Origin: an uncultured Candidatus Saccharibacteria bacterium
GTDB lineage: Bacteria > Patescibacteriota > Doudnabacteria > UBA920
Length of the DNA stretch: 64,000 nt
Direction of reading: 5' to 3'
Assembly (NCBI GenBank): GCA_964521955.1
Contig: CAZFTX010000001.1
Coordinates: 42,386-106,385 of the forward strand
A program made the position numbers and the translations under genes. Under the pieces are notes generated by a model. It saw only the letters and a program-made list of their open reading frames with translations, had not been told where the DNA came from and made no database searches. Shown piece after piece: positions 30,268 through 51,749 of the stretch; the first letter of the stretch is position 1, and each line of letters begins with the position of its first letter.

Positions 30268-30395
30268 ATTGAGTCAAATCCGAGGCAAAATGCGCGGATG
30301 ATTTGAGCCGTAGTTGACCTACGGTGAGAATCAACGCAAGCATTTTAACAAAGGAGTTGACCAAAGCTATTTTTAGAATCGGACTTTGCCCGAGC
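30268..30395 (+). repeat. intergenic repeat family A, copy 1 (structured, ~130-165 nt)
   Basis: Shares gagtcaa(a/g)t(c/t)cgaggcaaaatg(c/t)gc(g/a)gatgatt(t/c)gagccgtag-N4-5-ctacggtgagaa..caacgcaagcattttaac...ccaaagctactttagaatc + terminal hairpin with the copies at 48908-49058 and 51604-51749. This copy lacks the internal ccccaaaggggtctggctccgccag segment. Confidence 0.7.
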
Positions 30396-30497
30396 AAAAA
30401 AATAGCGTTACATAAGTTGATTTTTGTCTTTTTTAAAAGGCCTTGCAGGGCCTTTTTATAGAAACATTATACAAAACCTTTCAAAGTCTGTCAAATA

Positions 30498-30893
30498 CTA
30501 CTTAGACCTTGCCAAAGCCACAGCCACTCTTTCAACAACCTGCTTTAAATCCGTGTTTGTTTTAACAAAATACTCGTCAATCTTTAAGGCTTGGGCGCTT
30601 AAAATATCTTTTTCAGACCACAAGTTACTTAAAACTATAACAATAGTTTCTGCAATCGCCTTATCCTCATGCTTACGAATAGTTTTTAATACCTCATAGC
30701 CATCCGCCTCGGGCAAAAGCAAATCCAAAAGAATCAAATTAGGTTTTTTTTCATAAACCAATTCAATTGCTTTTTTCCCGTCTTCAGCCTTTAAAACTTC
30801 ATAATTTTGATTGCTAAGTTTGTCAAAAAGTATATTTAACAGGGAGATATCATCCTCCACAATCAAAACCTTTTTTTGTGTATTTTTTTCCAT
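30498..30893 (-). CDS. stand-alone response-regulator receiver domain (CheY-like)
   Basis: 131 aa; IVEDD...LLDLLLPEADG...K, the usual Asp/Asp/Lys triad arrangement. Confidence 0.8.
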   Translation of the reverse strand: MEKNTQKKVLIVEDDISLLNILFDKLSNQNYEVLKAEDGKKAIELVYEKKPNLILLDLLLPEADGYEVLKTIRKHEDKAIAETIVIVLSNLWSEKDILSAQALKIDEYFVKTNTDLKQVVERVAVALARSK

Positions 30894-30923
30894 ACGCTCT
30901 ATTTTAAATTTAGCTTAATTATA

Positions 30924-31868
30924 TTATACCACATAAATAGTTGGGTTGCATATTGACTCAGAACCAACTTTAAAGTCAACTGTTAATTCACTCTGTGACT
31001 TTAGGCTGCTACCTGCTGGTAATTTAATATAAATTTTATAAAAACCCGGGTTTAACCTTAAAAAAAACTTTCCGTCAGAACGGGTAACAGTCTTAGCTAA
31101 GACCAAATTAGGCAAACTTGGACTCTTAAGTTCCAACAAAGCTCCTGCAATTGGTTTAAAACTGCCACCCTCTCTCAACCTACCCCAAAGTCTGGGTTGC
31201 CTAACAATTTTTTCTAGTAGATACAGACTAAAAGAAACTAAAAATATCAAAAGAATAAATAAAGTTACCCTGTTAAAAGTAAGTTTGTTTAAATAAGAAA
31301 TTAAAATCCAAACGAAAGAAAATAAAAAAACAAACCAAAAAATTACAGAGACAAATTGTAAAATAAAATTTTTGAAGTAGGGATATTTTTTTATATAAGA
31401 ATCTTTTGCAGTCTGATTCCAATCAAACTTAATTGGATCCATAGGAATATTTGGTGCAACAACTTCTGAATTGTCGACCAAATTAAAAAGTTCACCCCTA
31501 TATAGATCTTCATAAAAACCGTCACTCGGAGAACTTGAAAGTTGAGAAGGAAACCTATAGTGAGTTTTCTGCGCTAAAATTTTGTAAGTGCCAGGCTCTA
31601 CCAAAAATCCATATCTCCCGGAAATATCAGTAATACAATTTTGCACCTCTTTCAAACCATCAGCCGAAACTAGCTTTACCATAACCGGATCAAGTGGTTT
31701 TTTTTCAACACTATCATAGACAATCCCCCAAAACTTTCTTGGTTTGCGCAATCCTAAAAAAACAAAAATTAAATTAAGAAATTTCTGAAAAAATAAAATC
31801 ACCTGAATGAATACAGGCAAATATGCTTTTTTTACAACTTTACTTTCAATACTATTCATTACCCACAA
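30924..31868 (-). CDS. membrane protein with CarboxypepD_reg-like domains; paralog of the giant protein's C-terminal anchor
   Basis: RKFWGIVYDSVEKKPLDPVMV...TDISGRYGF...NIPMDPIKFDWNQT plus TM helices and a second domain (GKFFLRLNPGFYKIYI). Collinear with the giant protein's C-terminus (RRYWGTVYDSVTKQPLDPVIV...NIPMDPLAFDWNQT...KGRFFLKAPKGEYILRV). Confidence 0.7.
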   Translation of the reverse strand: MWVMNSIESKVVKKAYLPVFIQVILFFQKFLNLIFVFLGLRKPRKFWGIVYDSVEKKPLDPVMVKLVSADGLKEVQNCITDISGRYGFLVEPGTYKILAQKTHYRFPSQLSSSPSDGFYEDLYRGELFNLVDNSEVVAPNIPMDPIKFDWNQTAKDSYIKKYPYFKNFILQFVSVIFWFVFLFSFVWILISYLNKLTFNRVTLFILLIFLVSFSLYLLEKIVRQPRLWGRLREGGSFKPIAGALLELKSPSLPNLVLAKTVTRSDGKFFLRLNPGFYKIYIKLPAGSSLKSQSELTVDFKVGSESICNPTIYVV

Positions 31869-32693
31869 TTATTTAGAGACTGCGACACTTAAGATATTTT
31901 TTAAAAGAAATGCCACCGTAATAGGACCAACCCCTCCAGGAACAGCTGAAAGAAACTTTGCTTTTTCTAAAACCTCCTCAACTTCTACATCTCCATAAAT
32001 ACTCCCATCTATTTCTGAAGCCCCCGCATCAATAACCACTGCACCTGGTTTAATCATAGCACCATTTATTAAACGAGGTTGACCGGTTGCTGTAATAACA
32101 ATATCCGCTTGCTTAATAATCTCCTCTTTATGGCTACTTTGTTTAGTCAAAGTATTTATTTGTAAACCTCGTTTTTTTAAAAGAAAAGCTAAAGGCTTGC
32201 CTACCAAAACTCCCTGGCCTATAACTAAAAAGTTCAACAACTTTAAATCTAAAGACAAAGTTTCAAGAATATGTAGAATTGCTGCTGCTGTTGGCGGAAC
32301 AAATCTTGAATAACCACTGTAAAAAAGACTGGAATTTTCTGTACCCATACAATCTACGTCCAACTTAGGATCAACAGCATCTAAAACAGCTTGCTGATTA
32401 AAAGTTGCAGGTAAGGGCAGCTGAACAATTAAACCACAAATGTTTTTTTTCTGGTTAGTTTCTTTAATTTTGGAGATTAGTTCATTTTCGTCAATATTTT
32501 CTGGCAAGCTAATATGTTGAAATTCAAAACCGTTTCTTTTTGCTACTCGTCCTTTTATTTTTATATACGAAAGCGAAACAGGATCACTCCCAACTGAAAT
32601 ATCGCAAAAAAGAGGTTGAAAACTTAAAGCTTCAACTTCTTTTTTTACATCTTTTAGTATTTCTTCAGCAATCTCTTTTCCGTTTATTAGCAT
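31869..32693 (-). CDS. folD: bifunctional methylenetetrahydrofolate dehydrogenase/cyclohydrolase
   Basis: GLIVQLPLP, the NAD(P)-binding VVIGQGVLVGKPLAFLL and DVGIN-like (VVIDAGA) motifs. Start moved to MLINGKEIA. Confidence 0.88.
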   Translation of the reverse strand: MLINGKEIAEEILKDVKKEVEALSFQPLFCDISVGSDPVSLSYIKIKGRVAKRNGFEFQHISLPENIDENELISKIKETNQKKNICGLIVQLPLPATFNQQAVLDAVDPKLDVDCMGTENSSLFYSGYSRFVPPTAAAILHILETLSLDLKLLNFLVIGQGVLVGKPLAFLLKKRGLQINTLTKQSSHKEEIIKQADIVITATGQPRLINGAMIKPGAVVIDAGASEIDGSIYGDVEVEEVLEKAKFLSAVPGGVGPITVAFLLKNILSVAVSK

Positions 32694-32766
32694 ACAACAA
32701 TTATACCCCATTCAAAAAAGACTGAATAGTACTTTAATTCTCAACGCGCGATAAAATTTAGGCATG

Positions 32767-32859
32767 GGTTCAAATCCTAGGCAAAATGTGCGCCTGCCTG
32801 CCGGCAAGGCAGGGCTGATTCGATAAATAAATAGCATCCTGAGGATCGGGCTTTGCCCG
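32767..32859 (+). repeat. intergenic repeat family A, diverged copy
   Basis: Keeps the 5' (ttcaaatcctaggcaaaatgtgcgc) and 3' (atcgggctttgcccgg) ends of family A with a different internal core (cctgcctgccggcaaggcaggg hairpin). Confidence 0.45.
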
Positions 32860-32918
32860 GCCGAAGGATACAATATGCAGGGGGAGGTATTGGAAGGGGG
32901 CGGTACGCCCCCTCCAAA

Positions 32919-34865
32919 CTAATTATTTTCATACCACCACTTTAGTGCCTCCCTAACAACCGGCACTGCTGCTGCGTGTCCTTCCCCACCTGCTTCCACT
33001 AAAACAGTGATAACAATCTCCGGGTCATCAAAAGGAGCGTAAGCGGTAAACCAAGCGTGAGTACGACTCGGGTCTGAACCGTCAAACTGAGAAGTTCCCG
33101 TTTTTCCTGCTGAGACAAAAGGTAAATCTAAAAGTTTTACACCTGAACCATATTCCACTGTCTGCCTCATCCCTTCTTGCACCATACGCAAGTTTTCATC
33201 ACTTGCAAATTTTTCCACAATTACTTCGGGGTTACTTTTGAAAACCACCTTTCCCTGCTCGTCTAAAATTTCTGACAATATTTTAGGTTTGTAACCGACA
33301 CCGTCATTTGCAATAATCGCTGTCCACATTGTAACCTGCAAAGGCGTAGTTAGCATATCACCCTGACCAATCCCTACATGATAAGTATCCCCTAAATACC
33401 ATTTACTTAAAATAGGGTTATTTTTAAAGTATTCAGACTTCCACTTTGGATCTGCTACTACTCCGGGTTTTTCGCCCCGCATGTCTATGCCGGTAAGTTT
33501 GTCTAAATTAAATTTTCTATAATACTCAGCTAATTTTTCCGCTCCTAGACCCTGTATTGGGGAACTAGGATGACCTCCTGCGAGAATATAAAAATAGATA
33601 TCACTACTTTTAGCAATTGCAGAGTAAACATTAACGGGACCAAGTCCATCCCTTTTCCAACTTACAAAATTATAAGCAATACTTGGGTCAAACTGGTTCG
33701 GTATAACCAAAACCCCTCTGTCCACAACCACAGTGTTTTCAGTAACGGTTTTTTCTTCCAAAGCAGCAAGTGCTACCATAGGTTTAACCGTTGACCCGGG
33801 CGGATAAGTTCCTGCAATACTTCGGTTGAACAATGGCAAAGTCTTGTCATTTAAAAGCTCTTGATATTCATGAGTTTTAATTCCATGAGCGAAAAGATTA
33901 TTATTAAATCCAGGTAAACTTAGCAAAGCCAGCACTTCCCCATTTTTTGGATTCATTGCTACAGCAACTGCCTTGGTTTTAGGATTATTTTTTGTAAGAT
34001 CAGCAAACAACTTTTTCTGCAAACCGGCGTCAATATTCAATTTAGCGGTCATTCCTGGAACTGGTTTTTTCTCACCCAATACACTTAGAAGCCTGCCGGA
34101 AGCATCCACCTCAATTAAATTTTCCCCATTTATACCATGTAAATAATTTTCATACTGCCTTTCTATGCCAGTCTTACCGGTAAAGTCAATACTACCATAC
34201 TTAGCTTTGTCTAAGACTAAAGCTTCTTCAGAGTTTAAAAACCCGGTATAACCGACAGTATGAGAAAAAACTAAGGGGTTTAAGTAATCTCTCACCGGAA
34301 TTTTTTGAATAGAAAATCCCGGAAACTCTGCGGCTTTAGTTTCAAAAAGTATACTCTCTTCTGAGCTTAAATCTTGTTTAATAATTAGAGGTTCTAAAGA
34401 CCGACTCCCAGCTTTTTCCAATTTTGCACTTGCCTCGTTCCGATCAAAAGCAAACAACGCTGAGAGCTTGTCTAGTTCTTCGTTTAAAGTTTCTTTCGGT
34501 AAGTCAAAAGGCACAACAACTAAGTTAAAACTAGCCGTATTTTGAACTAAAACCTCACCTTTTCTATCCTGGATTAACCCTCTAGGAGCTAAAATGACTT
34601 GTCTTCTTAAACGATTTTCTTCTGACATCAAACTAAAATTTTGCCCTCTTACAATTTGTAAGGTAAAAACTCTCGCTACCAAAACAAAAAAACCCGCAAA
34701 TAAAATTACAGATAAAAAAGTCAGTTTCGGCTTTAATCGGTCAGAATCAAAAACCCCCTCTTTCACAGATGCCTGAAAGTCAGCGGCAGATTCCTCCCAT
34801 TCCAAGCCCTTTGACTGGGAAGAAGAGTAGGAAGTTGTAACTTCAAAAGGATCTTTCATAAACAA
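32919..34865 (-). CDS. mrdA: penicillin-binding protein 2 (peptidoglycan D,D-transpeptidase)
   Basis: 648 aa. N-terminal TM, dimerisation domain, transpeptidase motifs STVK, SSD(i) and KTGT. Synteny mreBCD-mrdA. Confidence 0.88.
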   Translation of the reverse strand: MFMKDPFEVTTSYSSSQSKGLEWEESAADFQASVKEGVFDSDRLKPKLTFLSVILFAGFFVLVARVFTLQIVRGQNFSLMSEENRLRRQVILAPRGLIQDRKGEVLVQNTASFNLVVVPFDLPKETLNEELDKLSALFAFDRNEASAKLEKAGSRSLEPLIIKQDLSSEESILFETKAAEFPGFSIQKIPVRDYLNPLVFSHTVGYTGFLNSEEALVLDKAKYGSIDFTGKTGIERQYENYLHGINGENLIEVDASGRLLSVLGEKKPVPGMTAKLNIDAGLQKKLFADLTKNNPKTKAVAVAMNPKNGEVLALLSLPGFNNNLFAHGIKTHEYQELLNDKTLPLFNRSIAGTYPPGSTVKPMVALAALEEKTVTENTVVVDRGVLVIPNQFDPSIAYNFVSWKRDGLGPVNVYSAIAKSSDIYFYILAGGHPSSPIQGLGAEKLAEYYRKFNLDKLTGIDMRGEKPGVVADPKWKSEYFKNNPILSKWYLGDTYHVGIGQGDMLTTPLQVTMWTAIIANDGVGYKPKILSEILDEQGKVVFKSNPEVIVEKFASDENLRMVQEGMRQTVEYGSGVKLLDLPFVSAGKTGTSQFDGSDPSRTHAWFTAYAPFDDPEIVITVLVEAGGEGHAAAVPVVREALKWWYENN

Positions 34866-34869
34866 GAGT

Positions 34870-34990
34870 TTGGAGGGAACAACCTATAGGTTTTTCCCTT
34901 CCAACGTCCCGCCTCTGGCGGGACTGCTTCCCTTTTCCATAGCGTGTCCTTTCGGTCAGGCAAAGCCTGAACCTCCAGGACAAGCTATAA
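34870..34990 (+). repeat. intergenic structured repeat family B, copy 1 (contains the 24-bp palindrome GGGAACAACCTATAGGTTTTTCCC)
   Basis: Homologous in reverse orientation to 36551-36668. Shared segments are aacctataggtttttcccttccaacg, ctgc.tcccttttccata and the terminal gtcct..ttcgg.cagg...ggac. The internal GC hairpins differ in sequence but both still pair (gtcccgcc-tct-ggcgggac against tgccgac-ttc-gtcggca). Confidence 0.7.
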
Positions 34991-35017
34991 TTAGAATTTA
35001 TTAATTACCAATAAATA

Positions 35018-35554
35018 TTAGAACTTTTTTGTAGACAAATATTTTAAATTTACGTACTTTAAATATTCTACCAATTTATAAATTAAATACGAAACAAATA
35101 AACTGTAAAAGGCTTCAATTATAATCTGAATAAAATTTCCCCGTATGCTTAAGGTAAAATCTTCTAAATTCACAAAAACCAAGAAATTAGAATAAATCCA
35201 AAAAAGTAAATAAAACAAAGCAATACTTCCTAAAATAAAAGGTGCCCATGACTTCAAACTTAAACCTATGGAAAAAAAATAATTACTTAAAATATGAAAC
35301 CCAACACTCAAGAATAAAAAACTAAACATGTAACCCCCAAACAAACTACCATAATATGAATCTAAAAATAAACCGGAAACAAACGCAACAAATAAAAAAC
35401 TGTAATCTTTGTCTTTAAAAATTGCCAAAACCAAGACAAAAAGTAAAAGCAGATTTGGAAACGCCCCATATATTGAAAAAAGCGGCTGCAGTATCACTGT
35501 TAAAATAAATAAAACAAAAATTGTAAATAGGTAAAGCAGGTATTTCATATTCAA
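35018..35554 (-). CDS. mreD: rod shape-determining protein MreD
   Basis: 178 aa polytopic membrane protein located between mreC and mrdA. Confidence 0.7.
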   Translation of the reverse strand: MNMKYLLYLFTIFVLFILTVILQPLFSIYGAFPNLLLLFVLVLAIFKDKDYSFLFVAFVSGLFLDSYYGSLFGGYMFSFLFLSVGFHILSNYFFSIGLSLKSWAPFILGSIALFYLLFWIYSNFLVFVNLEDFTLSIRGNFIQIIIEAFYSLFVSYLIYKLVEYLKYVNLKYLSTKKF

Positions 35555-35624
35555 ATTATGTTTATAATCCTAATTATCCGAATATTATATTTGGGGCATT
35601 AGGATAGAATTCGGATCATTCGGA

Positions 35625-36425
35625 TTATGGTTTTACTACGAAGACAAAGTTAAGATTGTGAAAATCTATCGGACTAATAATAATTGCCTTTTTAAAAAGC
35701 TCATTACTACTTGAAACCAAATCCCCGATTTCTCCGACTAAAATATTTTTTGGAATTTTCTCACTTATTCCAGCAGTAATCACCAATGACCCTTTTTCAA
35801 TTTTGTCGTTTTGCGGGAGCTGATCAATAACCAAACCCGAACCAAAAGAACCCTTTACTAAACCTTGAGAATTTCCGGTTAAAATTTTTCCATCAGTTAA
35901 AAAATTAGACCCTGTAGCAAGCAAAACCGTACTTAAATTTTTACCTGCGCGAATAACTTTACCAATCAAATAACCTTGCGAAATAACACCCATACCTTCA
36001 CTAATTCCCGCCTCTTCCCCACAATTAATATACACTGAATCGCTCAATCCTATAACCGTTTCAGAAAGTGCTACGCAAGGTATCAACTTTAAATTTGAAG
36101 ACTTTACAAATTGCAACTCTTTTCTTAATGCCTCGTTTTCTTTTTTTTCTTGCTCATACAAAACCAACTCTTGTCTAAGTTGCCCTACTTCTAAAACTAA
36201 TTCAGTATTTTCGTTTGCAATTTGTCTTAAATGATAAAGACTGTAAAAAAATTCTTTCACCGGATAACCCACAGTCTTTGCTATGGAAATAAACGGTCTT
36301 GGGGCATACAGAAAAACTTTTTGAATACTTTCAAGTTTGCCAATTGAATTTAAAAATACAAAAACAAAAACAAGAAATAAAAAAGCAAAGAAAATTGCAA
36401 AAAGTCTGGTGTAAATAAATCGCAT
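35625..36425 (-). CDS. mreC: rod shape-determining protein MreC
   Basis: N-terminal TM, coiled coil (LRQELVLYEQEKKENEALRKELQ) and a C-terminal beta domain. Confidence 0.8.
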   Translation of the reverse strand: MRFIYTRLFAIFFAFLFLVFVFVFLNSIGKLESIQKVFLYAPRPFISIAKTVGYPVKEFFYSLYHLRQIANENTELVLEVGQLRQELVLYEQEKKENEALRKELQFVKSSNLKLIPCVALSETVIGLSDSVYINCGEEAGISEGMGVISQGYLIGKVIRAGKNLSTVLLATGSNFLTDGKILTGNSQGLVKGSFGSGLVIDQLPQNDKIEKGSLVITAGISEKIPKNILVGEIGDLVSSSNELFKKAIIISPIDFHNLNFVFVVKP

Positions 36426-36550
36426 AAGAAAATGACAAAAATAAATAAAAATTAAGAAAATGACAAAAATAATTTACATCAAATTTTTAACTTTCGCCTA
36501 TGAATGTTTATTGGTTTGACCAAATCCTAATACTGTTAAACTCAATAGAA

Positions 36551-36668
36551 GTCCGAAAGGTCAGGATTCCCCTGCCTGTAGGACTACATTATGGAAAAGG
36601 GAGGCAGCGATGCCGACGAAGTCGGCAGAGCGTTGGAAGGGAAAAACCTATAGGTTTTTCACTCCAAG
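36551..36668 (-). repeat. intergenic structured repeat family B, copy 2 (inverted; palindrome GGGAAAAACCTATAGGTTTTTCAC)
   Basis: See family B copy 1; this is its reverse complement, located between mreC and mreB. Confidence 0.7.
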
Positions 36669-36673
36669 ATGTT

Positions 36674-37729
36674 TTACTTCGGAATCATTCCAAAATCAGC
36701 AGGGACTAAAACATCCTTCAAAGTTTCCAAATCCTCAACTACAACACCTGTGCCTCTAACCACACAAGTAAGCGGATCTTCCGCAATAGTGATTGGCATA
36801 GCGGTGGCCTCTCCAACTAGTTTGTCTAAATCTCTTAAGAGCGCCCCGCCCCCGGCTAGTATTATTCCTCGGTTCATAATGTCAGAAATTATTTCCGGCG
36901 GAATCTCTTCTACAACACTTTTAATACTATTAACAATTGACTTTAAACTATGCATTAAAGCTTCCCTAGCTTGAGTATCTGAAATTGTTACTTCTTTAGG
37001 TAATCCAGTAACCAAATCCCTTCCGCGCATTTGGGTATACATTGCCTGTTCTTGGGGATAAGCACTCCCTACTCTAATTTTAACGTCTTCAGCAGTTCTC
37101 TCTCCCAAAAGTAAATTAAAATGCTCCCTTGCATACTGCATAATATTTTGATTCATTTCATCCCCGGCAATACGTAAAGACTTGGAAACCACTATTCCAC
37201 CCAAAGAAATAACTGCTATTTCCGTTGTTCCTCCACCAATATCAACTATCATAGAACCAGTTGCGTCTTGAACCGGCAACCTACTACCAATAGCTGCAGC
37301 CATAGGTTCTTCTATTAAAAACGCGGCTGATGCTCCTGCGTTTATAGCAGCATCTACCACAGCTCTTTTTTCTACTTCCGTTACACCGGAAGGTATTCCA
37401 ATAACCACCCTGGGTCTGCGTAAAAAAGCGTAAGTCTGACTATGGACTTTGTCTATAAAATACCTCAGCATGGCTTCTGTCACTTCAAAATCCGAAATCA
37501 CCCCGTCAACCAAAGGACGAGTCGCTACTATATAAGGAGGAGTACGACCAACCATTTTTCTGGCATCGTTACCAATTGCCAAAATTTGTTTAGTCCTTTG
37601 ATTAATAGCCACAACACTAGGCTCGTTAATCACAATCCCTTTGCCTTTTACATACACAAGAGTATTAGCAGTACCAAGGTCAATGCCAATGTCTTTTGAA
37701 AAATGTTGGTAGAGTCTATCAAAAATCAT
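36674..37729 (-). CDS. mreB: rod shape-determining actin homolog MreB
   Basis: IGIDLGTANTLVYV phosphate-1 motif and DIGGGTTE phosphate-2 motif. Start set to the ATG for MIFDRLY; the GTG-extended ORF would run into a palindrome. Confidence 0.95.
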   Translation of the reverse strand: MIFDRLYQHFSKDIGIDLGTANTLVYVKGKGIVINEPSVVAINQRTKQILAIGNDARKMVGRTPPYIVATRPLVDGVISDFEVTEAMLRYFIDKVHSQTYAFLRRPRVVIGIPSGVTEVEKRAVVDAAINAGASAAFLIEEPMAAAIGSRLPVQDATGSMIVDIGGGTTEIAVISLGGIVVSKSLRIAGDEMNQNIMQYAREHFNLLLGERTAEDVKIRVGSAYPQEQAMYTQMRGRDLVTGLPKEVTISDTQAREALMHSLKSIVNSIKSVVEEIPPEIISDIMNRGIILAGGGALLRDLDKLVGEATAMPITIAEDPLTCVVRGTGVVVEDLETLKDVLVPADFGMIPK

Positions 37730-37738
37730 TTGTGTTTT

Positions 37739-37774
37739 ACCCAGCACCACTTTTTTAAAAAAGTGGTGCTGGGT
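37739..37774. terminator. perfect 17-bp inverted repeat (acccagcaccactttttt|aaaaaagtggtgctgggt), probably a bidirectional terminator
   Basis: Exact palindrome read in the sequence, about 110 nt downstream of proS and just upstream of the mreB start. The T/A runs form the centre. Confidence 0.55.
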
Positions 37775-37882
37775 TTATCTTTCTTTTCATTTAGCTAAAA
37801 TTAAAAATATCCAAAAAACCAGATTTTGAATATTTTTAATGGGTTTTATTTTAAACCGAAAATTTTGTCGGGAAAATTTTAA

Positions 37883-40264: not shown

Positions 40265-40344
40265 ATATATAAACTTTTCTATTTCTTTCTATTATTCTTA
40301 ATTTTTGTCAATTTTGTTCAATTTTATTTATTTTTGTCATTACT

Positions 40345-43712: not shown

Positions 43713-43764
43713 AATTTAGACATCCCCCCGAGCGAATCCCGACCAGATCGGGACGAACCGAGGG

Positions 43765-44706
43765 GTGCCCAATAAACCTATGAATTTAAAAAAAATTCTT
43801 GTCTTAATCGGACCCACAGCTTCGGGCAAGTCTGAACTAGGTGTCAGTCTCGCTAAAAAATTCAATGGAGAAATTATTTCTGCTGACAGTCGCCAAATTT
43901 ACAAAGATATGGACTTAGGTACAGGTAAGGTGGAGGGTAAATGGAAAAAAGATATTTTTATTTACAAAAATATCCCTCACCACTGCATTGATTTTATAAA
44001 TCCAAAAGTTAGGTTCTCTGTAGCACGTTTTCAAAAAAATACCAAAAAAATAATTGCCGATATTTTAAAGCGCGGCAAATTGCCTATTTTAGTAGGAGGA
44101 ACCGGCCACTACATAGACGCGGTTGTTTACAATATACAACTGCCAAACGTAAAACCCAATCTTGCCTTAAGAAAAAAATTAGAGCAATTCCCTACCGAAC
44201 GCCTATTTGCACAAATTAAAAACAAAGACCCAATTAGGGCAAAAACTATCGACCCTCACAACCGTCGTCGCCTCATCCGTGCCCTGGAAATAATCCTTAC
44301 CACCGGCAAACCGGTTCCTGTTCTACCTACAAGCTACGAGCTACAAGCTAACAACTATGATTCCTTATGGCTCGGCATTACCCTCCCCCAAGAAACACTC
44401 TATAAAAAAATAGAAAAACGCCTGAAGGAAAGACTTAAGTTAGGAATGATTAAAGAAGTTGAAAAACTTAAAAAATCAGGGCTCTCCTACAAACGCCTTG
44501 AGTCTTTTGGTTTGGAGTATAAATTCATAGCACTGTATTTACAAAAGAAAATTACTTACAAAGAAATGGAAGAAAAACTTCTCTTTGCAATTAAACACTA
44601 TTCCAAAAGACAACTCACTTGGTGGAAAAAAAACAAGGAAATTCACTGGATAAAACCAAACTTAACCAAAGCTACTAAACTGACTCAACAATTTTTATCC
44701 CAATAG
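43765..44706 (+). CDS. miaA: tRNA dimethylallyltransferase
   Basis: P-loop GPTASGKS and SADSRQIYKDMDLGTGK are canonical MiaA. Confidence 0.9.
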   Translation: MPNKPMNLKKILVLIGPTASGKSELGVSLAKKFNGEIISADSRQIYKDMDLGTGKVEGKWKKDIFIYKNIPHHCIDFINPKVRFSVARFQKNTKKIIADILKRGKLPILVGGTGHYIDAVVYNIQLPNVKPNLALRKKLEQFPTERLFAQIKNKDPIRAKTIDPHNRRRLIRALEIILTTGKPVPVLPTSYELQANNYDSLWLGITLPQETLYKKIEKRLKERLKLGMIKEVEKLKKSGLSYKRLESFGLEYKFIALYLQKKITYKEMEEKLLFAIKHYSKRQLTWWKKNKEIHWIKPNLTKATKLTQQFLSQ

Positions 44707-44782
44707 TCTTCTCTGTTCACTAAGCTTAAACCTTGACTTAGGTTTTTTAGTTACATACAATTCCTGTGCCAAGGAGGCAGTT

Positions 44783-45022
44783 ATGAACACACCTGCGACA
44801 GCAGGCTCACGCATCACGAAGAGTTTCGAGACATCCCCTGATGATCAAGTGAAAATCGCAAGGAGCTTGTTTCCAGCTTGTCACAGCGACCTAATCACAA
44901 GCAACTTCTTTGAACCTGGCAAGAAACCACCCGTCACCTGCCCTGACACGGACAGTGACTCGCCTACATACCAGTTTCCCACACCACTAAACGGCATTCC
45001 GTTCATGACGGAAAACGACTAA
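44783..45022 (+). CDS. hypothetical small protein (GC-rich island 3)
   Basis: AAGGAGG 6 nt before the ATG; about 55% GC; no recognised domain. Confidence 0.4.
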   Translation: MNTPATAGSRITKSFETSPDDQVKIARSLFPACHSDLITSNFFEPGKKPPVTCPDTDSDSPTYQFPTPLNGIPFMTEND

Positions 45023-45043
45023 CAATCAACCTAGGAGGCAAGC

Positions 45044-45265
45044 ATGCCATACCAAACAAGAAACGGCACAGTGATTAAAACAGTGACCTATGATAAAACC
45101 ACTGGGAACATGAAAGTCGAAATTGCCCCTGATCGCGACCCAAGGATCGACGAAGCACTGGCAGAATTCCAGCGCCTAACGGCAGGCATGTTGGACGCAG
45201 CAACCCGCGACAGTGTTGACCGAGCTTTCGTGCAACTTGCAGAGAAACTCCTTCTGGAAAACTGA
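45044..45265 (+). CDS. hypothetical small protein (GC-rich island 3)
   Basis: TAGGAGG SD before the ATG; 73 aa. Confidence 0.4.
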   Translation: MPYQTRNGTVIKTVTYDKTTGNMKVEIAPDRDPRIDEALAEFQRLTAGMLDAATRDSVDRAFVQLAEKLLLEN

Positions 45266-45272
45266 CGACACC

Positions 45273-45413
45273 ATGACTGACAACTATCAACCCTTGCCTG
45301 AAGAGGAACCCTCTGAAACCAATGTCATACCAGCACAGTCGCAAGAACCCCAGTCAGCCGATCCCCATCCAGCCGCCGACCACACTTCTGTGCCCGAGGA
45401 TTACCATTGGTAG
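45273..45413 (+). CDS. hypothetical small acidic protein (GC-rich island 3)
   Basis: In-frame ATG (MTDNYQPLPEEE...) 7 nt after the previous stop. Weak support. Confidence 0.25.
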   Translation: MTDNYQPLPEEEPSETNVIPAQSQEPQSADPHPAADHTSVPEDYHW

Positions 45414-45429
45414 ACTCTCGACACTCGCA

Positions 45430-45473
45430 AAACGCCGCCTCCGACACTCTCGGAAGCGGCGTTCCCTTTTTTC
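45430..45473 (+). terminator. rho-independent terminator
   Basis: aacgccgcctccg-N7-cggaagcggcgtt stem followed by cccttttttc. Confidence 0.6.
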
Positions 45474-45499
45474 TTGCCCTAATTACTTAGCGCTTAGCC

Positions 45500-46975
45500 C
45501 TATCCCAGCTTCTTCTTAAGAAGTTGATTGATCACTCCCGGATTCCCTTTACCCTTCAATTCTTTCATTGTCTGACCAACTAAAAACCCAAAAGACTTTT
45601 GTTCACCGGCTTTAAAATCTTGCACAGCTTTCTCATTTGCTTTTATAACTTTTTCAACAGCAACTTCAATAGCACTTTCGTCGCTCACCTGTTCTAAACC
45701 TAAGTCAGCTACAATATTGTCCGGCTCCCCGCCTTTTTCAAACATGACTTTAAACACTTGCTTAGCTGCACTGCCGGAAATTTTTCCCTGATCAATCAAT
45801 TTAATTAATTCAGCAAAATTTTCCGCAGTAACACAAGAATCCTTTGGATTAAAAAGTTTTTGGTTTAACGCAGCTGAAAACTCTTGCAAACACCAATTCG
45901 CAGCTTGCTTAATCAAACCCTGTCTATCCAAACCTTTTTCTTCTATCATCCACCCGTCCAGCTCACTAACCACTTCTTCAAAAAAATAAGCAAGTTCTTT
46001 CCAGTTAACCAAATTTTCAACATCCATCTCTGTTAAACCAAATTCTTCTTTAAACCTGGTTCTCTTTTGTGCCGGCAGTTCAGGGATACGTGCTTTTAAT
46101 TTTTCTAAAAACTCTTTATCAAATTTCAAAATTGGCAAATCCGGTTCCGGAAAATACCTATAATCATTCGCTTCTTCTTTACTTCTTTGCTCAACAGTTA
46201 CGTTTTCTTTTTCGTTCCAGCCCATGGTAACTTGTTTAGGCATGTCACCATTTTTTAAACTTTGAGTTTGCCTGACAATTTCATAATTAATTGCACTCTC
46301 AGCAAACTTAAAGGAGTTAATGTTTTTAACTTCCACTTTGTACTTTGGCAATGTTTCTTCACCGGGTTTTCTTACTGAAATGCTTGGCTCACAACGCATG
46401 GTACCTTTTTCCATGTCACAAGAAGAGGCTCCAACATAACGAATAATATTTCTAAGTTCTGTTAAAAATATCCTGGCTTCTTCCCCGCTTTCAATGTCTG
46501 GTTCGGTCACAACTTCTAAAAGCGGCGCACCTGCGCGGTTGTAATCAACTAAACTGTAAGACAAACCTTCAGGGTGAATATTTTTCCCAGCGTCTTCTTC
46601 TAAATGAGCACGTGTAATACGAACTCGTTTAACTTTGCCTTGCACGGTTATATCTAAATAGCCATTCTTAGCAATTGGTTGGTCAAACTGAGAAATTTGG
46701 TATCCTTTTGGCAAGTCAGGATAAAAGTAATGCTTTCGGTCAAACTTTGAAAATTCCGGAATTTCACAATTCAAAGCCAAACCTACCATAGCTGCAAGAC
46801 GTATAGCTTCTTTGTTAGCCACAGGTAAAGTTCCGGGCTGCCCAGTAACTATTTCGTCTATGTTAGTGTTAGGAACAGTTTCGTCGGGGTTATTTGGAGC
46901 AGGCGAAAACATCTTACTCTTTGTAGCAAGTTGTACGTGTATTTCAAGTCCAATTACTGGTCTAAATTCCGACAT
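45500..46975 (-). CDS. gatB: Asp/Glu-tRNA amidotransferase subunit B
   Basis: FRPVIGLEIHVQL N-terminus and GatB/YqeY C-terminal domain. Start moved to MSEFRPV; the upstream extension would overlap gatA. Confidence 0.9.
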   Translation of the reverse strand: MSEFRPVIGLEIHVQLATKSKMFSPAPNNPDETVPNTNIDEIVTGQPGTLPVANKEAIRLAAMVGLALNCEIPEFSKFDRKHYFYPDLPKGYQISQFDQPIAKNGYLDITVQGKVKRVRITRAHLEEDAGKNIHPEGLSYSLVDYNRAGAPLLEVVTEPDIESGEEARIFLTELRNIIRYVGASSCDMEKGTMRCEPSISVRKPGEETLPKYKVEVKNINSFKFAESAINYEIVRQTQSLKNGDMPKQVTMGWNEKENVTVEQRSKEEANDYRYFPEPDLPILKFDKEFLEKLKARIPELPAQKRTRFKEEFGLTEMDVENLVNWKELAYFFEEVVSELDGWMIEEKGLDRQGLIKQAANWCLQEFSAALNQKLFNPKDSCVTAENFAELIKLIDQGKISGSAAKQVFKVMFEKGGEPDNIVADLGLEQVSDESAIEVAVEKVIKANEKAVQDFKAGEQKSFGFLVGQTMKELKGKGNPGVINQLLKKKLG

Positions 46976-46997
46976 TAATTTAAAAATGTTTAAATGT

Positions 46998-48485
46998 TTA
47001 AATGCTTGGATGTTTTTTATGCCACTGTGTAATTTGCTGATAAGCATGTCCTACGTTAAACACAACTTGCTCTCCCCATTGAGGACCAATAATCTGCATA
47101 CCAACAGGCAACCCGTCAACCGAAGGGCTTTCTCCTTCAGAGGGTCTTGAAAAACCTACCGGAACTGAAACTGCTGGAAGCCCTGCTAAAGAAGAAGGTA
47201 TGTTTAACTGGTCAGCAATGTATCCAAAAAGCGGGTTGTCTTTGGCTTTACCCAAAGGTACAGCAACGTTTGGTGAAGCGGGTGCAACTAAAACGTCTAC
47301 CTGTTTAAAAATTTCTTCAAACTCATTTATTATCAACCTTCTCACCTTCTGAGCTTTTTTGTAATAAGCGTCATAGTATCCGGCAGAAAGCACATAAGTT
47401 CCGGTAAGAATGCGTCTTTTAGCTTCAATCCCAAAATATTCTCCTCGAGTTTTATTATAAACTTCAAAAAGATCTTTTGCGTTTTTAGAACTGGACCCAT
47501 AACGAATACCGTCGTAACGCATGAGGTTAGAAGAAACTTCACTGGGACAAATAATTGCATAAACTAATGAACCAAATTTGGTATTGGGTAAATTTACTTC
47601 TTTAATTTCGGCGCCCATTTTTTTGAGTTCTTCAACAGCTTCCATAACCTTTACTCTAACACCTTCTTCCATACCATCCACAAAGTATTCTTTTGGTACA
47701 CCAACTTTCAAACCTTTAATATCAGTATTTAAATTTTTTGCAAAAAAAGGAACTTCTCCTCCTCCGGTTGTAGAATCCTTTTCATCTACTCCAGAAATTA
47801 CTTCTGCTATATGCGCCAAATCTTTCACGGAAAAAGCCACGGCTCCCGGCGAATCCAAAGAACTGCCCATAGAAATAACCCCGTACCGACTCACTCGGCC
47901 GTAAGTAGGCTTCCAACCGGAAACACCGCACAAACTACTTGGCTGACGAATGCTTCCACCCGTTTCAGTAGCCGTTGCCCAAGGGGTTAAGCCTAAAGCC
48001 AAAGCAGCTGTACTGCCTCCGGAGGAACCTCCTGGAATGCGAGTTTTGTCCCAAGGATTCTTTGTTGCACCGAATGCTGAAGTCTCTGTTGAGGACCCGT
48101 GTGCAAATTCGTCTAAATTTGTTTTGCCCAACAAAACACTTTTTTGTTCTTTAAGTTTGGCAGTGACTGTCCCGTCATAAGGAGGTAAATAGTTATCTAA
48201 AATTTTAGAACTCGCCGTAGTTCTTAAACCCTGCGTGCAAAACAAATCCTTAGACGCATAAGGTATCCCACATAAAAAAGGATTCTCACCGGGAGAGTTA
48301 ATAAACTCATCAGCTTCAGCAGCGTTTTTTAAAGCTTCTTCTTCTGTAACCGTAACAAAAGAATTCAAATCCTTGTCTAAAGATTTTATACGCTCCAAAA
48401 AATGCTTCGTCAACTCAACTGAAGAAACTTTTTTCTCATCCAATATTTTTCTAAGCTCCGTAAGCTCTAAAAACTCTAACTGCAT
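46998..48485 (-). CDS. gatA: Asp/Glu-tRNA amidotransferase subunit A (amidase)
   Basis: Amidase signature GGSSGGSTAALA and a Ser-cisSer-Lys triad context. Confidence 0.92.
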   Translation of the reverse strand: MQLEFLELTELRKILDEKKVSSVELTKHFLERIKSLDKDLNSFVTVTEEEALKNAAEADEFINSPGENPFLCGIPYASKDLFCTQGLRTTASSKILDNYLPPYDGTVTAKLKEQKSVLLGKTNLDEFAHGSSTETSAFGATKNPWDKTRIPGGSSGGSTAALALGLTPWATATETGGSIRQPSSLCGVSGWKPTYGRVSRYGVISMGSSLDSPGAVAFSVKDLAHIAEVISGVDEKDSTTGGGEVPFFAKNLNTDIKGLKVGVPKEYFVDGMEEGVRVKVMEAVEELKKMGAEIKEVNLPNTKFGSLVYAIICPSEVSSNLMRYDGIRYGSSSKNAKDLFEVYNKTRGEYFGIEAKRRILTGTYVLSAGYYDAYYKKAQKVRRLIINEFEEIFKQVDVLVAPASPNVAVPLGKAKDNPLFGYIADQLNIPSSLAGLPAVSVPVGFSRPSEGESPSVDGLPVGMQIIGPQWGEQVVFNVGHAYQQITQWHKKHPSI

Positions 48486-48543
48486 TTTATGTCTTTAATA
48501 AATTATGTTCAATTTTATTTAATTTTGATCAATTTTGTCATTT

Positions 48544-48825
48544 CTAGAGTATTTCTCTAACCTTATAAAACTCATCTTTCACTTCGGGTGCTTGGGCTAA
48601 TATTTCCTCTCTATTATTACCAAGTTTGGACTCATCCATTCTTTGCACATTGACTAAACCGGTTACTTGAGAAACCTCGTCCAACCCTTCCGTATTCAGC
48701 CCTTGCAACTCTTTTACATACTCCAAAACAGCGGAAACTCCGCTTTGGAGCACTTCCACTTCTTCGTCTGAAAGCTCAATTCGAGCTAAAAGAGCAACTT
48801 TTTCTACTTCTTCTTTAGTGAGCAT
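48544..48825 (-). CDS. gatC: Asp/Glu-tRNA amidotransferase subunit C
   Basis: 93 aa; VEKVA.LARIEL..EE pattern; gatCAB order. Confidence 0.85.
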   Translation of the reverse strand: MLTKEEVEKVALLARIELSDEEVEVLQSGVSAVLEYVKELQGLNTEGLDEVSQVTGLVNVQRMDESKLGNNREEILAQAPEVKDEFYKVREIL

Positions 48826-48907
48826 AAGAGCACTAATTATAGCAAAGCCTCAAAAGCCTTTCAAATGCTTAATACTAAAAAATATCAACTATCACAAAGT
48901 CTATATA

Positions 48908-49058
48908 TTGAGCCAAGTTCGAGGCAAAATGCGCGGATGATTCGAGCCGTAGTGAACCTACGGTGAGAAACAACGCAAGCATTTTAACGAAGCCCCCAAA
49001 GGGGTCTGGCTCCGCCAGAAAATTGGCCAAAGCTACTTTAGAAATCGGGCTATGCCCG
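48908..49058 (+). repeat. intergenic repeat family A, copy 2
   Basis: Full-length copy between secA and gatC, including the cccccaaaggggtctggctccgccag segment. Confidence 0.7.
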
Positions 49059-49087
49059 TTTCAAAAGTAGCGGTATATTGACTTTAA

Positions 49088-51457
49088 CTAGAGTAAATTT
49101 TTTTGAAGAAGAAGAACAAACAAAGACTTAATAAACTGCTTTTGAATCCCTTTACCCATTTCTTCAAACAAATTTTTACTCTCTAAAATAAATTCAATGA
49201 GCGGGTCTTCAGAAGCATAAGAAAGTAACCCAGCCTCTTCCTTTAAAACATCCATAAGTTCTAAATGATCACTCCAGTGATTGTCTATAATTTGTAGGAT
49301 CAACTGCTGACTAGCCTCCCAAGTCTCTGGGTTTTCTTTTAAAAGCCCGGCTCTAGTTTGCAAATATGTAGAAAATTTATCTACCGCTACATTGGCTTTT
49401 TCCGAAAGTTTGTTTTTATCCTGCTTGTTAGAAAAATATTCTTCTAACTCATGCGGGTTAACTTCTACACTAAACACATCTCTCAAATTTTCTGCAACTA
49501 ACTTTGGTTCTGCAAGCAAAAAAGCAAAACTTACCAAATCTGAAATGGTTTGGTTTAAAAATTTTTCAAATTCAACTTCGTTTTCTAAAAGCCTGTCCCT
49601 TAAAGCATAAACTTCACTGCGTTGAAAATTTATAACTCTGTCGTATTTATACAAATAAATTCTACCATCATAATTTTTACTTTCTACAAAATCTTGGGCT
49701 TTCTTAAATTCTTCGTCCAAACTTTTCCCAGAAATGTATTCGTCTTCAGGAATATCATACTCCTCTAAAGCGTCAATAATTCTTTCGCTACCAAACATTT
49801 GCATAATTTCATCTTCCATCGAAATCAAAAACTGGCTTTCACCTGCCTCACCTTGTCTGCCGCTTCTTCCAATTAACTGGTCGTCTATTCTTCTGGATTC
49901 ATGTCTTTCAGTTCCAATTACATAAAGACCACCCAAAGCTTCAACGCCTGGACCTAAAAGTATGTCCGTACCCCGACCTGCCATGTTAGTTGCAACTGTA
50001 ATCATACCTTCTAGTCCTGCCTTGGAAATTTTTTCCGCTTCAGCTCTGTGGTCAGACGCTGTTAAAAGCTGGAAAGGCATTTCTTCTGTTTCCAACATGT
50101 CGGCCAACGCATGGGCAGTTTCTACAGTTCGTGCACAAAGTAAAATTGGCTGACCGCGTTTATGAATTTGTTTCAGTTTTTTTAAAAGTCCAGCAAATTT
50201 TCCTTTTTGAGTCTTAAAAAACAAATCCGAATGGTCAACCCTGGTAACTGCCTTGTTTGTGGGAATTTTCACAACTTCCAAATTATATACTTGCATAAAC
50301 TCATCCCTAGCGCGCATAACCGTTCCGGACATACCGGAAAGTTTTTCATACATTGGGAAAAAGTTTTGAAATGTTAAAGCTGCAACCGTTCGGTCAGAAT
50401 CTTTCACTAAAACTTTTTCTTTTGCTTCAATTGCTTGGTGCACTCCGTCCGTAAACCTTCTGCCAGGCAAAACTCTTCCAGTAAACTCATCCACAATTTC
50501 CACCCCAGTTTCAGTAACAATATAGTCTCTGTCTTTTTCAAAAAGCGTTTTAGCTCTTAAACACACGTCTAAATAAAAAACATACATGGGATTTTCCTTT
50601 GAAAACATTGGCGAACCAATTAACTTTTCCATTTTATCCAAACCCGTAGAAGTTAAACTTACGTTTTTGTGTTGGTAGTCAACTTTAAAATCTTTATCTT
50701 CCTCTAAACTAGCGACATTTTTTGTAAACAAATCATACAAACTTCTTTGTTCTTTTACTGTCGCCGCAATAATTAAAGGCGTACGCGACTCGTCAATGAG
50801 TATACTGTCTATTTCATCTACAATTCCAAAATGCAAAGGATTTTCTTTCCTTAAAACCCTGTCACTTTTTGAAAAAACTAAATTATCCCTTAAATAATCA
50901 AAGCCTAAGTCTTGGTTAGTTACATAAGTTATGTCAGCCGCATAAGCTTTTCGTCTGTCTTCACTTTTCATGGCCGAAGTCACAAAACCAGTACTCAAGC
51001 CTAAGAAAGAATAAAGTTTATTCATTTCTTTTGCGTCTCTTTCTGCTAAATAGTCGTTAGTAGTAATTACATGCACGCCTTTTCCTAAAAGCGCGTTCAA
51101 ATAAACCGGCATTGTTTCAGTTAAAGTTTTGCCTTCTCCGGCTTTCATTTCAGCAATTTTTCCTAAGTGGATTACTAACCCACCTAAAATTTGTACTTCA
51201 TACGGAGTTTTACCAAACATTCTTCTTGCGGCTTCACACACTAAAGCAAACCCCGGCACAACCAACGAATCTAAAGACTTGCCTTTTTTCAAGTCATCTT
51301 TAAAAGCTAAAGTAGCCAGCCTAAGTTCTTTGTCTGCCCAACTTTTTAGTTCTTCACGATTTTTTAAAATCAAATCCACCCTGTGCTCCAAAGAACCCAA
51401 AGCTTTTGTATCAATGTAACCGTTTATTTTGTCTTTTAAAGAATCAATAAAACCCAT
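49088..51457 (-). CDS. secA: preprotein translocase ATPase SecA (short, 789 aa)
   Basis: DEAD-like motor (MKAGEGKT, DEIDSILIDE) and the preprotein cross-linking domain. It lacks the long C-terminal tail. Confidence 0.92.
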   Translation of the reverse strand: MGFIDSLKDKINGYIDTKALGSLEHRVDLILKNREELKSWADKELRLATLAFKDDLKKGKSLDSLVVPGFALVCEAARRMFGKTPYEVQILGGLVIHLGKIAEMKAGEGKTLTETMPVYLNALLGKGVHVITTNDYLAERDAKEMNKLYSFLGLSTGFVTSAMKSEDRRKAYAADITYVTNQDLGFDYLRDNLVFSKSDRVLRKENPLHFGIVDEIDSILIDESRTPLIIAATVKEQRSLYDLFTKNVASLEEDKDFKVDYQHKNVSLTSTGLDKMEKLIGSPMFSKENPMYVFYLDVCLRAKTLFEKDRDYIVTETGVEIVDEFTGRVLPGRRFTDGVHQAIEAKEKVLVKDSDRTVAALTFQNFFPMYEKLSGMSGTVMRARDEFMQVYNLEVVKIPTNKAVTRVDHSDLFFKTQKGKFAGLLKKLKQIHKRGQPILLCARTVETAHALADMLETEEMPFQLLTASDHRAEAEKISKAGLEGMITVATNMAGRGTDILLGPGVEALGGLYVIGTERHESRRIDDQLIGRSGRQGEAGESQFLISMEDEIMQMFGSERIIDALEEYDIPEDEYISGKSLDEEFKKAQDFVESKNYDGRIYLYKYDRVINFQRSEVYALRDRLLENEVEFEKFLNQTISDLVSFAFLLAEPKLVAENLRDVFSVEVNPHELEEYFSNKQDKNKLSEKANVAVDKFSTYLQTRAGLLKENPETWEASQQLILQIIDNHWSDHLELMDVLKEEAGLLSYASEDPLIEFILESKNLFEEMGKGIQKQFIKSLFVLLLQKNLL

Positions 51458-51603
51458 TTAACTTTGTATATTTTTGTTTCTAAAGTTTGCTTATTTTGAG
51501 ATAATTATACCATAAAAACCGCAGATGTGCTATAATAAATTTACTTTAAATTAACTCGCACGCGAAGAAAAAGCGTTGTCGAAGAAATAGAATTTTACGC
51601 ATT

Positions 51604-51749
51604 AAGTCAAGTTCGAGGCAAAATGTGCAGATGATTCGAGCCGTAGTCTACTACGGTGAGAAGAAACGCAAACATTTTAACAAAGCCCCAAAGGGGTCTG
51701 GCTCCGCCAGAAAATTGACCAAAGCTACTTTTAGAATCTGGCTCAGCCA
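51604..51749 (+). repeat. intergenic repeat family A, copy 3
   Basis: Full-length copy between secA and lemA. The terminal hairpin is ctggctcagccag, against gggctatgccc in copy 2. Confidence 0.7.

Follow-up and report, generated by a model that had tools for sequence, protein, structure and literature searches.

The window described here is a stretch of 64 kb, with a GC content of about 37%, from a Doudnabacteria-related bacterium of the candidate phyla radiation (CPR). The closest named relatives of its SecA are from Candidatus Doudnabacteria and Patescibacteria, at 63-67% identity, and the nearest relatives of all reach 72%. Four of its intergenic spacers hold members of one repeat family, which our repeat search resolved into three full copies (A, C and D) and one mosaic copy (B), all in the same orientation. 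According to Pfam, the genes flanking the copies encode a response regulator and SecE (A), PBP2 and FolD (B), SecA and GatC (C), and SecA and LemA (D). The full units are 167-192 nt long, under the ~500 bp size of a MITE (miniature inverted-repeat transposable element), and are dispersed over unrelated spacers. An optional module of two hairpins (P4-P5 of the fold described below) is present in C and D and not in the copy A of the window. The copies and modules are located as follows.

30256-30422: copy A, a short form of 167 nt that lacks the P4-P5 module, in the spacer between the response-regulator gene (stop 30498) and secE (start 30221)
about 32749-32882: copy B, mosaic or degenerate, in the spacer from the PBP2 stop (32919) to the folD start (32711)
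48896-49085: copy C, 190 nt, long form, with the secA stop codon (49088-49090) 2 nt away
48993-49019: P4-P5 module of copy C (P4 CCCC/GGGG, P5 TCTGGC/GCCAGA)
51588-51779: copy D, a long form of 192 nt, flanked by the divergent secA and lemA
51686-51711: P4-P5 module of copy D

Several independent searches delimited the family. The core 16-mer YCKAGGCAAAATGYGC occurs four times, once in each of the four copies, against 0.18 occurrences expected by chance, and a profile hidden Markov model of the full copies (nhmmer) detected only these four copies in 64 kb. With its filters off, the covariance model R1 scored copy C at 218 bits, D at 206.8 and A at 169.6, and recovered one partial copy and nothing more in the 64 kb. 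The copies are mutually 80-90% identical and each sits in unique flanks. In copy B, the 5' block TGGGTTCAAATCCTAGGCAAAATGTGCGC (32765-32793) and the P6/P7 hairpin (32834-32871) are kept, and the middle consists of an unrelated hairpin, CCTGCC/GGCAGG (32797-32813); nhmmer detected the 5' block with E = 0.0011, and the covariance model scored only the hairpin, at 19.8 bits. The last 15 nt of copy D overlap the first ATG of the lemA open reading frame (ORF) at 51765, so the true start of lemA is probably at 51789.

An earlier sequence-only reading had claimed four co-oriented copies, one of them diverged, and had named the genes around them. The repeat search, the 16-mer matches, nhmmer and the covariance model all bear out the four copies, and Pfam agrees on the neighbours (SecE, response regulator, FolD, PBP2, GatC, SecA and LemA). 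The locations it gave were right and its lengths too short, as the closing helix of 10-14 bp and the outer stem GCTAYTTT/AAARTAGC flank the ends that it reported. Its diverged copy is indeed present, as a mosaic retaining just the 5' block and the 3' hairpin domain. It had also raised the worry that the copies might be collapsed duplicates of an assembly, which does not hold, since they differ by 10-20%, are flanked by unique sequence and turn up again in assemblies made independently from at least six samples. Close to copy B, a GC-rich hairpin, GGAAGGGGGCGGTACGCCCCCTCC, lies at 32885-32912 between the copy and the PBP2 stop; it is unusual at 37% GC and is not in the allele of a sister strain (L136).

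All full copies share one fold of ten helices, which are named on the plus strand.

P0: closing helix of 10-14 bp, different in every copy
Pi (TTG/CAA), Pj (GYCAA/TTGRC) and Pk (TTCG/CGAA): junction
P1: AAAATGYGCG pairing with CGC-AA-RCATTTT
P2: TTC/GAA, with a tandem GA/GA internal loop after it
P3: CCGTAG/CTACGG, whose loop varies
P4 (CCCC/GGGG) and P5 (TCTGGC/GCCAGA): optional module
P6 (GCTAYTTT/AAARTAGC) enclosing P7 (CKGGC/GCCMG): long irregular hairpin

In this architecture, P0 encloses the P6-P7 hairpin, a junction domain (Pi/Pj/Pk-P1-P2-P3) and the optional P4-P5. The junction has invariant elements, namely GAGGC, GAUGA...GAGAA and the tandem GA/GA. The fold was first read by eye and then tested on alignments of six sequences (plus strand) and four sequences (minus strand), some of them orthologous; the sequences from which the structure was derived are the same as those used for testing. 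Against dinucleotide shuffles, every full copy gave fold z-scores of -3.7 to -7.5 on both strands, and copy B only -1.6 to -1.8. In the plus-strand alignment, 93.6% of the cells are paired and 10 pairs are changed on both sides, which was equalled by one of 500 shuffles. The corresponding values for the minus strand are 96.2% and 11 pairs, equalled by none of 500 shuffles, and seven of the ten helices there are 100% paired. As a control, the partners were slid by 1-3 columns, after which 35-44% of the cells in the plus-strand alignment paired, with 0-2 double changes, and 26-43% of those in the minus-strand alignment. The double changes are located in P0 (six pairs), Pj, P1, P6 and P7, with one more in P5 on the minus-strand alignment. 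Watson-Crick pairs make up 49 of 54 in copy A and 63 of 64 in copy C. Thus the ten-helix fold is supported, and the compensatory stem changes reported by the sequence-only reading are real and more numerous than it stated. The hairpin that it gave as ggg/ccc in copy A is actually CGGAC/GCCCG, with an A.C mismatch on the plus strand that corresponds to G.U on the minus strand. Helices are lost in two of the six distinct variants, B (without P1-P3) and the copy A of L136 (broken P1).

With regard to the folded strand, most stem changes that affect one side only read as A.C on the plus strand and hence as G.U on the minus strand, about 7 to 2 in favour of the minus strand. The share of paired cells is likewise greater there (96.2% versus 93.6%). 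Together these give, at best, a slight leaning toward the minus strand as the one that folds. The preference is weakened by three facts. The minimum free energies of the two strands are equal or differ slightly in favour of the plus strand; only on that strand does the invariant GA/GA loop form a stable motif; and all four substitutions that separate the copy D of the window from its orthologues are C-to-T on the minus strand, one of them at an unpaired site. The GC skew of the plus strand is negative throughout the window, which makes the gene-rich minus strand the leading strand, and a leading-strand mutation bias can explain the wobble asymmetry because the substitutions in D include an unpaired site.

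Each full copy terminates in P0, whose inverted repeat is AATCACTTATGTA in copy A, AAAGTCTATATA in copy C and TAGAATTTTACGCA in copy D. Only the inner ~8 nt (TYTAYRYA) can be aligned, and these covary. The dinucleotide TA stands immediately inside P0 in A and C only.

To compare the sites between strains, we recovered the same loci from other strains (L numbers) by exact-protein look-up; their plus strand corresponds to the minus strand of the window. Strain 2 (L136, L161) and strain 3 (L137, L162) are each about 97% identical to the window at the nucleotide level, and strain 4 (L131) is about 88-89% identical. The locus of strain 4 covers sites C and D, not A and B. The four sites compare as follows.

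Site A: short form in the window; in strain 2 a P4-P5 variant with a broken P1; in strain 3 the same copy as in strain 2
Site B: copy present in the window; in strains 2 and 3 (L136, L137) family X, a second repeat, instead
Site C: copy present in the window; in strain 2 (L161) a gene for a beta-helix protein of 1140 amino acids; in strains 3 and 4 (L162, L131) family X
Site D: copy with the P4-P5 module in the window; copy without the module in L131, L161 and L162

Moreover, L138, L140, L163 and L164 are 99.8-100% identical to the window and have the same copies. Site A is occupied in L136, L137, L138, L140 and L141, copy D is also found at the same site in L163, and copy C occurs in the window lineage including L120-L123. 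The copy A of L136 has an extra two-hairpin module, TCAC/GTGA plus CCCC/GGGG, which has the shape of P4-P5 with partly different sequence. An adjoining stretch of ~14 nt differs at about six positions, which breaks P1, in flanks that are about 97% identical. This pattern is the signature of gene conversion, and the copy is probably a mosaic that received a segment from another family member. Since the module is absent from the D of L131, L161 and L162, it was gained by, or converted into, D in the window lineage. By parsimony, A and D are old, and B, C and the module of D are recent gains in the window lineage. Copy C, inferred to be the youngest of the copies, is also the most perfect in its pairing. 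In addition, contigs assembled from short reads end inside or beside the copies, and those of L120, L121 and L122 break within C.

In relatives at ~70% SecA identity (L133-L135), the lemA-secA and secA-gatC spacers are 51-57 nt long. A further locus, L132, has a secA-gatC spacer of 54 nt and an ORF of 116 amino acids between lemA and secA. The covariance model found no element in the L132-L135 loci. The family is therefore lineage-restricted. Between the window and L162, copy D is 97.6% identical, lemA 98.2% and the spacer between D and secA 96.9%. Copy D is thus no more conserved than the neighbouring lemA, and there is no sign of extra constraint on it.

The sister strains also have features of their own at and around these sites. 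Family X is a second dispersed repeat, consisting of an AT-rich long hairpin, aatctacaRatRyctacaRatttt ... aagatYYgtagacatYYgtagattt, followed by gttt and the tail cgSWagatttgagg. It was found in the PBP2-folD and secA-gatC spacers of the sister strains (L136:3345-3470, L131:2675-2800 and L162:12371-12480) and is 85% identical between its two sites; none is present in the window, and it is unrelated to the A-D family. The beta-helix gene lies at L161:12580-16002, between secA and gatC in a strain ~97% identical to the window. In the same strain, a 23S_rRNA_IVP-family gene (L161:18103-18459) lies between gatA and gatB. The secA gene itself (49088-51457) is 91.7% identical to those of L161/L162, though the neighbouring lemA is 98.2% identical, which suggests that this secA allele is recombinant. 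The 5' untranslated region (UTR) of secA has small strain-specific hairpin insertions, for example CCCTCTCC...GGAGAGGG in L162.

The transcriptional context of the copies was read from consensus scans alone, and the promoter-like sites nearby are the following.

30494-30466, minus strand: sigma-70 promoter TTGACA-17-TATAAT, 12/12 match, upstream of copy A and outside the repeat, conserved in L136
48864-48836, minus strand: gatC promoter, 11/12 match plus TG, with copy C upstream of it
51528-51536, plus strand: candidate extended -10 element TGcTATAAT, read by eye, which would put all of copy D in the 5' UTR of lemA
51512-51504, minus strand: candidate extended -10 element of secA, TGgTATAAT, read by eye, beyond copy D

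The promoter near copy A sits between the stop codon of the response-regulator gene and a terminator-like hairpin, AAAAAGGCCCTGCAAGGCCTTTT (30434-30494, minus strand), so a transcript from it would start with that hairpin. Copy D probably lies in the plus-sense 5' UTR of lemA, as far as the candidate -10 element indicates. No promoter is common to the copies on either strand, and the promoter-like sites near them differ in strand, spacing and quality. Similarly, the terminator scan called no site inside any copy. The copies are thus found in the 5' UTR, the 3' UTR and antisense-oriented UTR of unrelated genes, which makes a gene-specific regulator or a discrete small RNA (sRNA) gene unlikely.

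We interpret the family, with moderate confidence, as a lineage-specific, modular, structured, non-coding dispersed intergenic repeat of a Doudnabacteria-related CPR bacterium, akin to ERIC, bcr1, BOX/SPRITE and Correia elements. Gain and loss of B and C, insertion and deletion of modules, conversion between copies and contig breaks are the behaviour of a dispersed, recombining or mobile repeat. The sequence-only reading had offered a structured sRNA or a MITE as candidates. The former is disfavoured by the lack of a promoter or terminator common to the copies, by their inconsistent positions relative to transcription units and by the broken helices in two of the six variants. The likeness to a MITE stands as far as behaviour is concerned and fails at the ends of the element, where neither target-site duplications (TSDs) nor a shared terminal inverted repeat (TIR) sequence was found. 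TSDs bounding the copies, which it had named as a finding that would speak against an RNA, are likewise missing. The family therefore falls outside the strict definition of a MITE by TIR plus TSD, and it has no detectable kinship to any described family. A role of the element as a gene-specific regulator or a discrete trans-acting RNA is probably not the case.

The analyses show that each unit folds, as a single strand, into a closed shape. They also show turnover of the family between strains: copies arise in spacers just past stop codons and ahead of promoters, replacing other hairpin repeats, orthologous copies gain or lose modules, and copies exchange segments. The spread and homogenisation of the units may be due to recombination or gene conversion, or else to an enzyme encoded in trans that acts on the folded single strand. 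The fold may be kept because it is needed for propagation, or because such a closed bundle of hairpins does a transcript no harm or is of mild use to it, possibly as a 3'-end or insulator structure in place of the hairpin that it displaced.

Several observations weigh against this interpretation as a dispersed repeat. The evidence base is four copies in one 64-kb window. Compensatory changes over ten helices, together with a freely covarying closing helix, are a classic signature of functional RNA. The gene tables of the fetched loci list no transposase or recombinase, and none was found among the ten ORFs scanned in the window, the neighbours of the copies included. As to the ends, no TIR sequence common to the copies was found, and the flanks of C and D outside P0 share no direct repeat of at least 3 nt; those of copy A share only TTT/TTT, in AT-rich DNA. 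No clean empty site exists among the strains compared, the alternative alleles being occupied by other sequence, and mobility could thus be mimicked if strains replaced alleles by homologous recombination. For the same reason, two possible explanations of P0, that its pairing is selected copy by copy or that the core inserts into the centre of pre-existing palindromes, are indistinguishable.

The signature of compensatory change would also fit the idea that the copies are paralogous functional RNAs, either trans-acting sRNAs or a cis-acting leader or 3'-UTR element, in which the junction and loops would be active and the closing helix would just pair. This idea would account for significant covariation in ten helices and for a closing helix that is wholly different in each copy yet paired; it also gains from the fact that A and D keep their sites even in strains of only 88-92% nucleotide identity, and from the perfect consensus promoter just upstream of copy A on the gene strand. 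As no Rfam family matches, such an RNA would be new. We consider it unlikely, however, that the copies are of this kind. They share no promoter or terminator on either strand, the genes beside them have unrelated functions, C and D are each located upstream of the promoter of the downstream gene, and D is probably transcribed in the opposite sense, within the 5' UTR of lemA. Moreover, P1-P3 are lacking in B and P1 is broken in the A of L136, sister strains are without B and C, and D is no better conserved than lemA. The copies might also be terminator or insulator cassettes, in which the gene-strand P6-P7 hairpin followed by UUUGG (UAUUUAUUUAU in B) ends the upstream transcript. Copies B and C start 2-40 nt past the stop codons of PBP2 and secA, the corresponding two sites in the sister strains are occupied by family X, a long hairpin whose tail is T-rich, and B keeps just the P6-P7 hairpin and the U-rich tail; selection for termination would explain why family X and the A-D family replace each other in one spacer. 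SPRITE repeats provide a precedent (PMC3184786). On the other hand, the scan calls no terminator inside any copy, the U tract is of 3 nt and is itself paired in Pi, no gene lies upstream of D on that strand, A is downstream of a separate terminator-like hairpin, and ~120 nt of conserved structure beyond the hairpin would have no explanation. Such cassettes therefore seem quite unlikely to us.

Folding of DNA rather than RNA is the basis of another explanation, in which the copies are single-stranded DNA (ssDNA) substrates of a Y1 (HUH) transposase, like the IS200/IS605-derived PATE or the REP/RAYT systems, that fold on the lagging-strand template. Lagging-strand folding would explain why TIR and TSD are lacking and why the orientation is uniform. 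The four copies are indeed co-oriented, and the negative GC skew of the plus strand puts the minus-strand sequence on the lagging-strand template; there are hairpins near both ends, and stem changes on one side only are for the most part G.T on the minus strand. For four of four copies to share an orientation, however, p is 0.125; the flanks contain no conserved tetra- or pentanucleotide; no Y1 transposase is seen in any locus table; and the wobble asymmetry can be an ordinary leading-strand mutation bias, as the four substitutions in D, one of them unpaired, indicate. We regard this explanation as highly improbable. Nearly as improbable is a new class of structured RNA or ssDNA of a Doudnabacteria-like CPR lineage with an activity of its own. 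By analogy with bridge RNA and omega-RNA, it might be an RNA or ssDNA that partners a recombinase or nuclease encoded in trans, or it might be a processing or ribozyme module; the invariant junction would then be the active core and the freely varying closing helix would only hold it closed.

The interpretation as a dispersed structured repeat is informed by well-described families in other bacteria. ERIC (IRU) elements of Enterobacteriaceae are imperfect palindromes of about 127 nt classed as MITEs, and ERIC-type copies carry TIRs, target duplications and flanking TA (PMC3184786). Our family resembles them in being intergenic and non-coding, in its size of 100-200 nt, in that the whole unit folds back, in its strain-variable presence, in its short and long forms generated by internal insertions at fixed points, and in its location in or beside transcription units. 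It differs in the lack of TSD, in the variable sequence of the closing helix and in a branched fold of ten helices instead of one long hairpin; the likeness is one of structure and behaviour, with no sequence similarity seen. Similarly, bcr1 elements are dispersed repeats of ~150 nt whose predicted RNA has two stem-loop domains closed by paired ends, but they belong to another phylum and have another sequence, and nothing in our family was seen to correspond to their own consensus and target duplication. BOX, RUP and SPRITE are repeats of Streptococcus pneumoniae, and SPRITE is terminator-like and mobile (PMC3184786). The presence or absence of modules in our family is like that of boxA-B-C, and a stable predicted RNA and, in some, a terminator-like character near gene 3' ends are further likenesses; it has, however, no tandem boxB-like arrays, no known mobilising insertion sequence and no canonical terminator signature. 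Correia elements (CREE) of Neisseria, and TIR-bearing MITEs in general, are comparable in size, intergenic location, strain-dependent presence and the pairing of the ends in a long helix, whereas the fixed 26-bp TIR, TA duplication, promoters and IHF site of Correia were not found in our family. With REP/BIME-RAYT systems and the IS200/IS605-derived PATE, it has in common the lack of TIR and TSD, the hairpins, the uniform orientation and a GTAG/CTAC hairpin (CCGTAG...CTACGG). REPs, however, are simple palindromes of 20-40 nt in hundreds of copies, and our unit has 167-192 nt and ten helices, with GTAG only within the P3 stem; PATE differs by a conserved flanking target motif and a Y1 transposase, neither of which is seen at our loci. 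The four copies are co-oriented on one replichore of negative GC skew, which would be a strand bias of the PATE type, though with n=4 it is not significant.

Searches against known RNA families gave no match to the copies. At the gathering threshold, the only match of Rfam 15 in the window is tRNA-Ser at 62020-62108, so the Rfam/Infernal check proposed by the sequence-only reading found no family for any copy. A permissive Rfam search (E up to 10) of 30000-33200 and 48800-51900 gave matches at chance level, 16-22 bits, none of them plausible. ARAGORN found no tRNA or tmRNA at the copies, and GGTTCAAATCC in copy B merely resembles a T-arm. A small protein or type I toxin is rejected, since the minus-strand ORFs of 47-52 amino acids are frameshifted in D and their ATG is lost in the A of L136; differences between A and C are mostly non-synonymous, and the frames differ between copies. 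A profile of the three encoded peptides had no match among 5.8 billion proteins. Some other candidates were discarded by eye: box C/D or K-turn (GAUGA and UGAG are present, with no 3-nt bulge and the D-box not beside a stem), a hammerhead core (CGGAUGA and not CUGAUGA, no three-way junction), domain V of a group II intron (GAGCCGUA fits, in a stem of just 7 bp that lacks both a bulge and a GNRA loop), a retron msr/msd (closing inverted repeats but no reverse transcriptase gene), an integron attC (no R'/R'' core sites, and the neighbours are housekeeping genes) and a promoter-bearing cassette (TTGACT/TTGACC hexamers, no -10 box at consistent spacing).

With regard to relatives elsewhere, a scan of genome contigs with TYCKAGGCAAAATGYGC has about 555 matches expected by chance and is uninformative on the distribution of the family. 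Among the matches listed, the only genome with multiple matches is the Chlamydiales metagenome-assembled genome JACKPM01. This link was rejected, as the 17-mer lies inside an unrelated TIR-MITE and the similarity beyond it is not significant (28 of 500 shuffles as high); the 17-mer is probably common to the two by chance. The JGI metagenome scan returned chance matches only. It missed the element-bearing contig Ga0099942_1016, although two copies in that strain, read from their sequences, match the scan pattern; its negative result thus says nothing on absence. Two patterns searched in viral contigs retrieved nothing related, and our full-text literature search retrieved no report of small structured mobile repeats in CPR bacteria. 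The TIR-MITE of JACKPM01 (HK-STAS-VERR_A-1) is an element in its own right, ~165 nt long (ATGGTGTCGTCAAATTTTCTCCTTTGT...ACAAAGGAGAAAATTTGACGACACCAT) and flanked by CTAG, with at least 27 copies sampled. Its loci include L001, L012, L019, L025, L026, L028 and L029, some of them nested or in tandem, and its inner segment occurs in both orientations between the inverted repeats GCAAAATGCGC and GCGCATTTTGC.

The window holds other repeats outside the family. A 10-nt periodic motif, TCAATTTTG and its variants, forms arrays of 2-3 phased units at 40293-40336, 48494-48547 and 57291-57334. The first two lie in intra-operon spacers (frr to the M50 peptidase gene, and gatC to gatA), and the third overlaps the 5' end of the ORF 57322-58056. 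These could be phased arrays for the binding of a protein. A giant ORF of 2869 amino acids (17140-25749, minus strand) has an internal pair of 300-nt repeats (22411-22710/23029-23328) that are 89% identical, and a 73-kb contig of a sister strain ends ~200 nt past the start codon of this gene. A pair of direct repeats, 6217-6344/6745-6872, is 128 nt long with 84% identity and a spacing of 528 nt.

Finally, the genomes of CPR/Patescibacteria are streamlined, at ~1 Mb. As the A-D family shows, fast-turning intergenic hairpin elements are kept even in such genomes. Spacers beside essential genes (secE, secA, gatCAB, folD) are swapped between at least two repeat families in strains that are a few per cent apart. 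In practice, assemblies of these organisms from short reads break at the repeats, which could also be used as markers to tell strains apart. Should a discrete RNA be seen in a transcriptome, a new RNA family would be defined by the covariance model.

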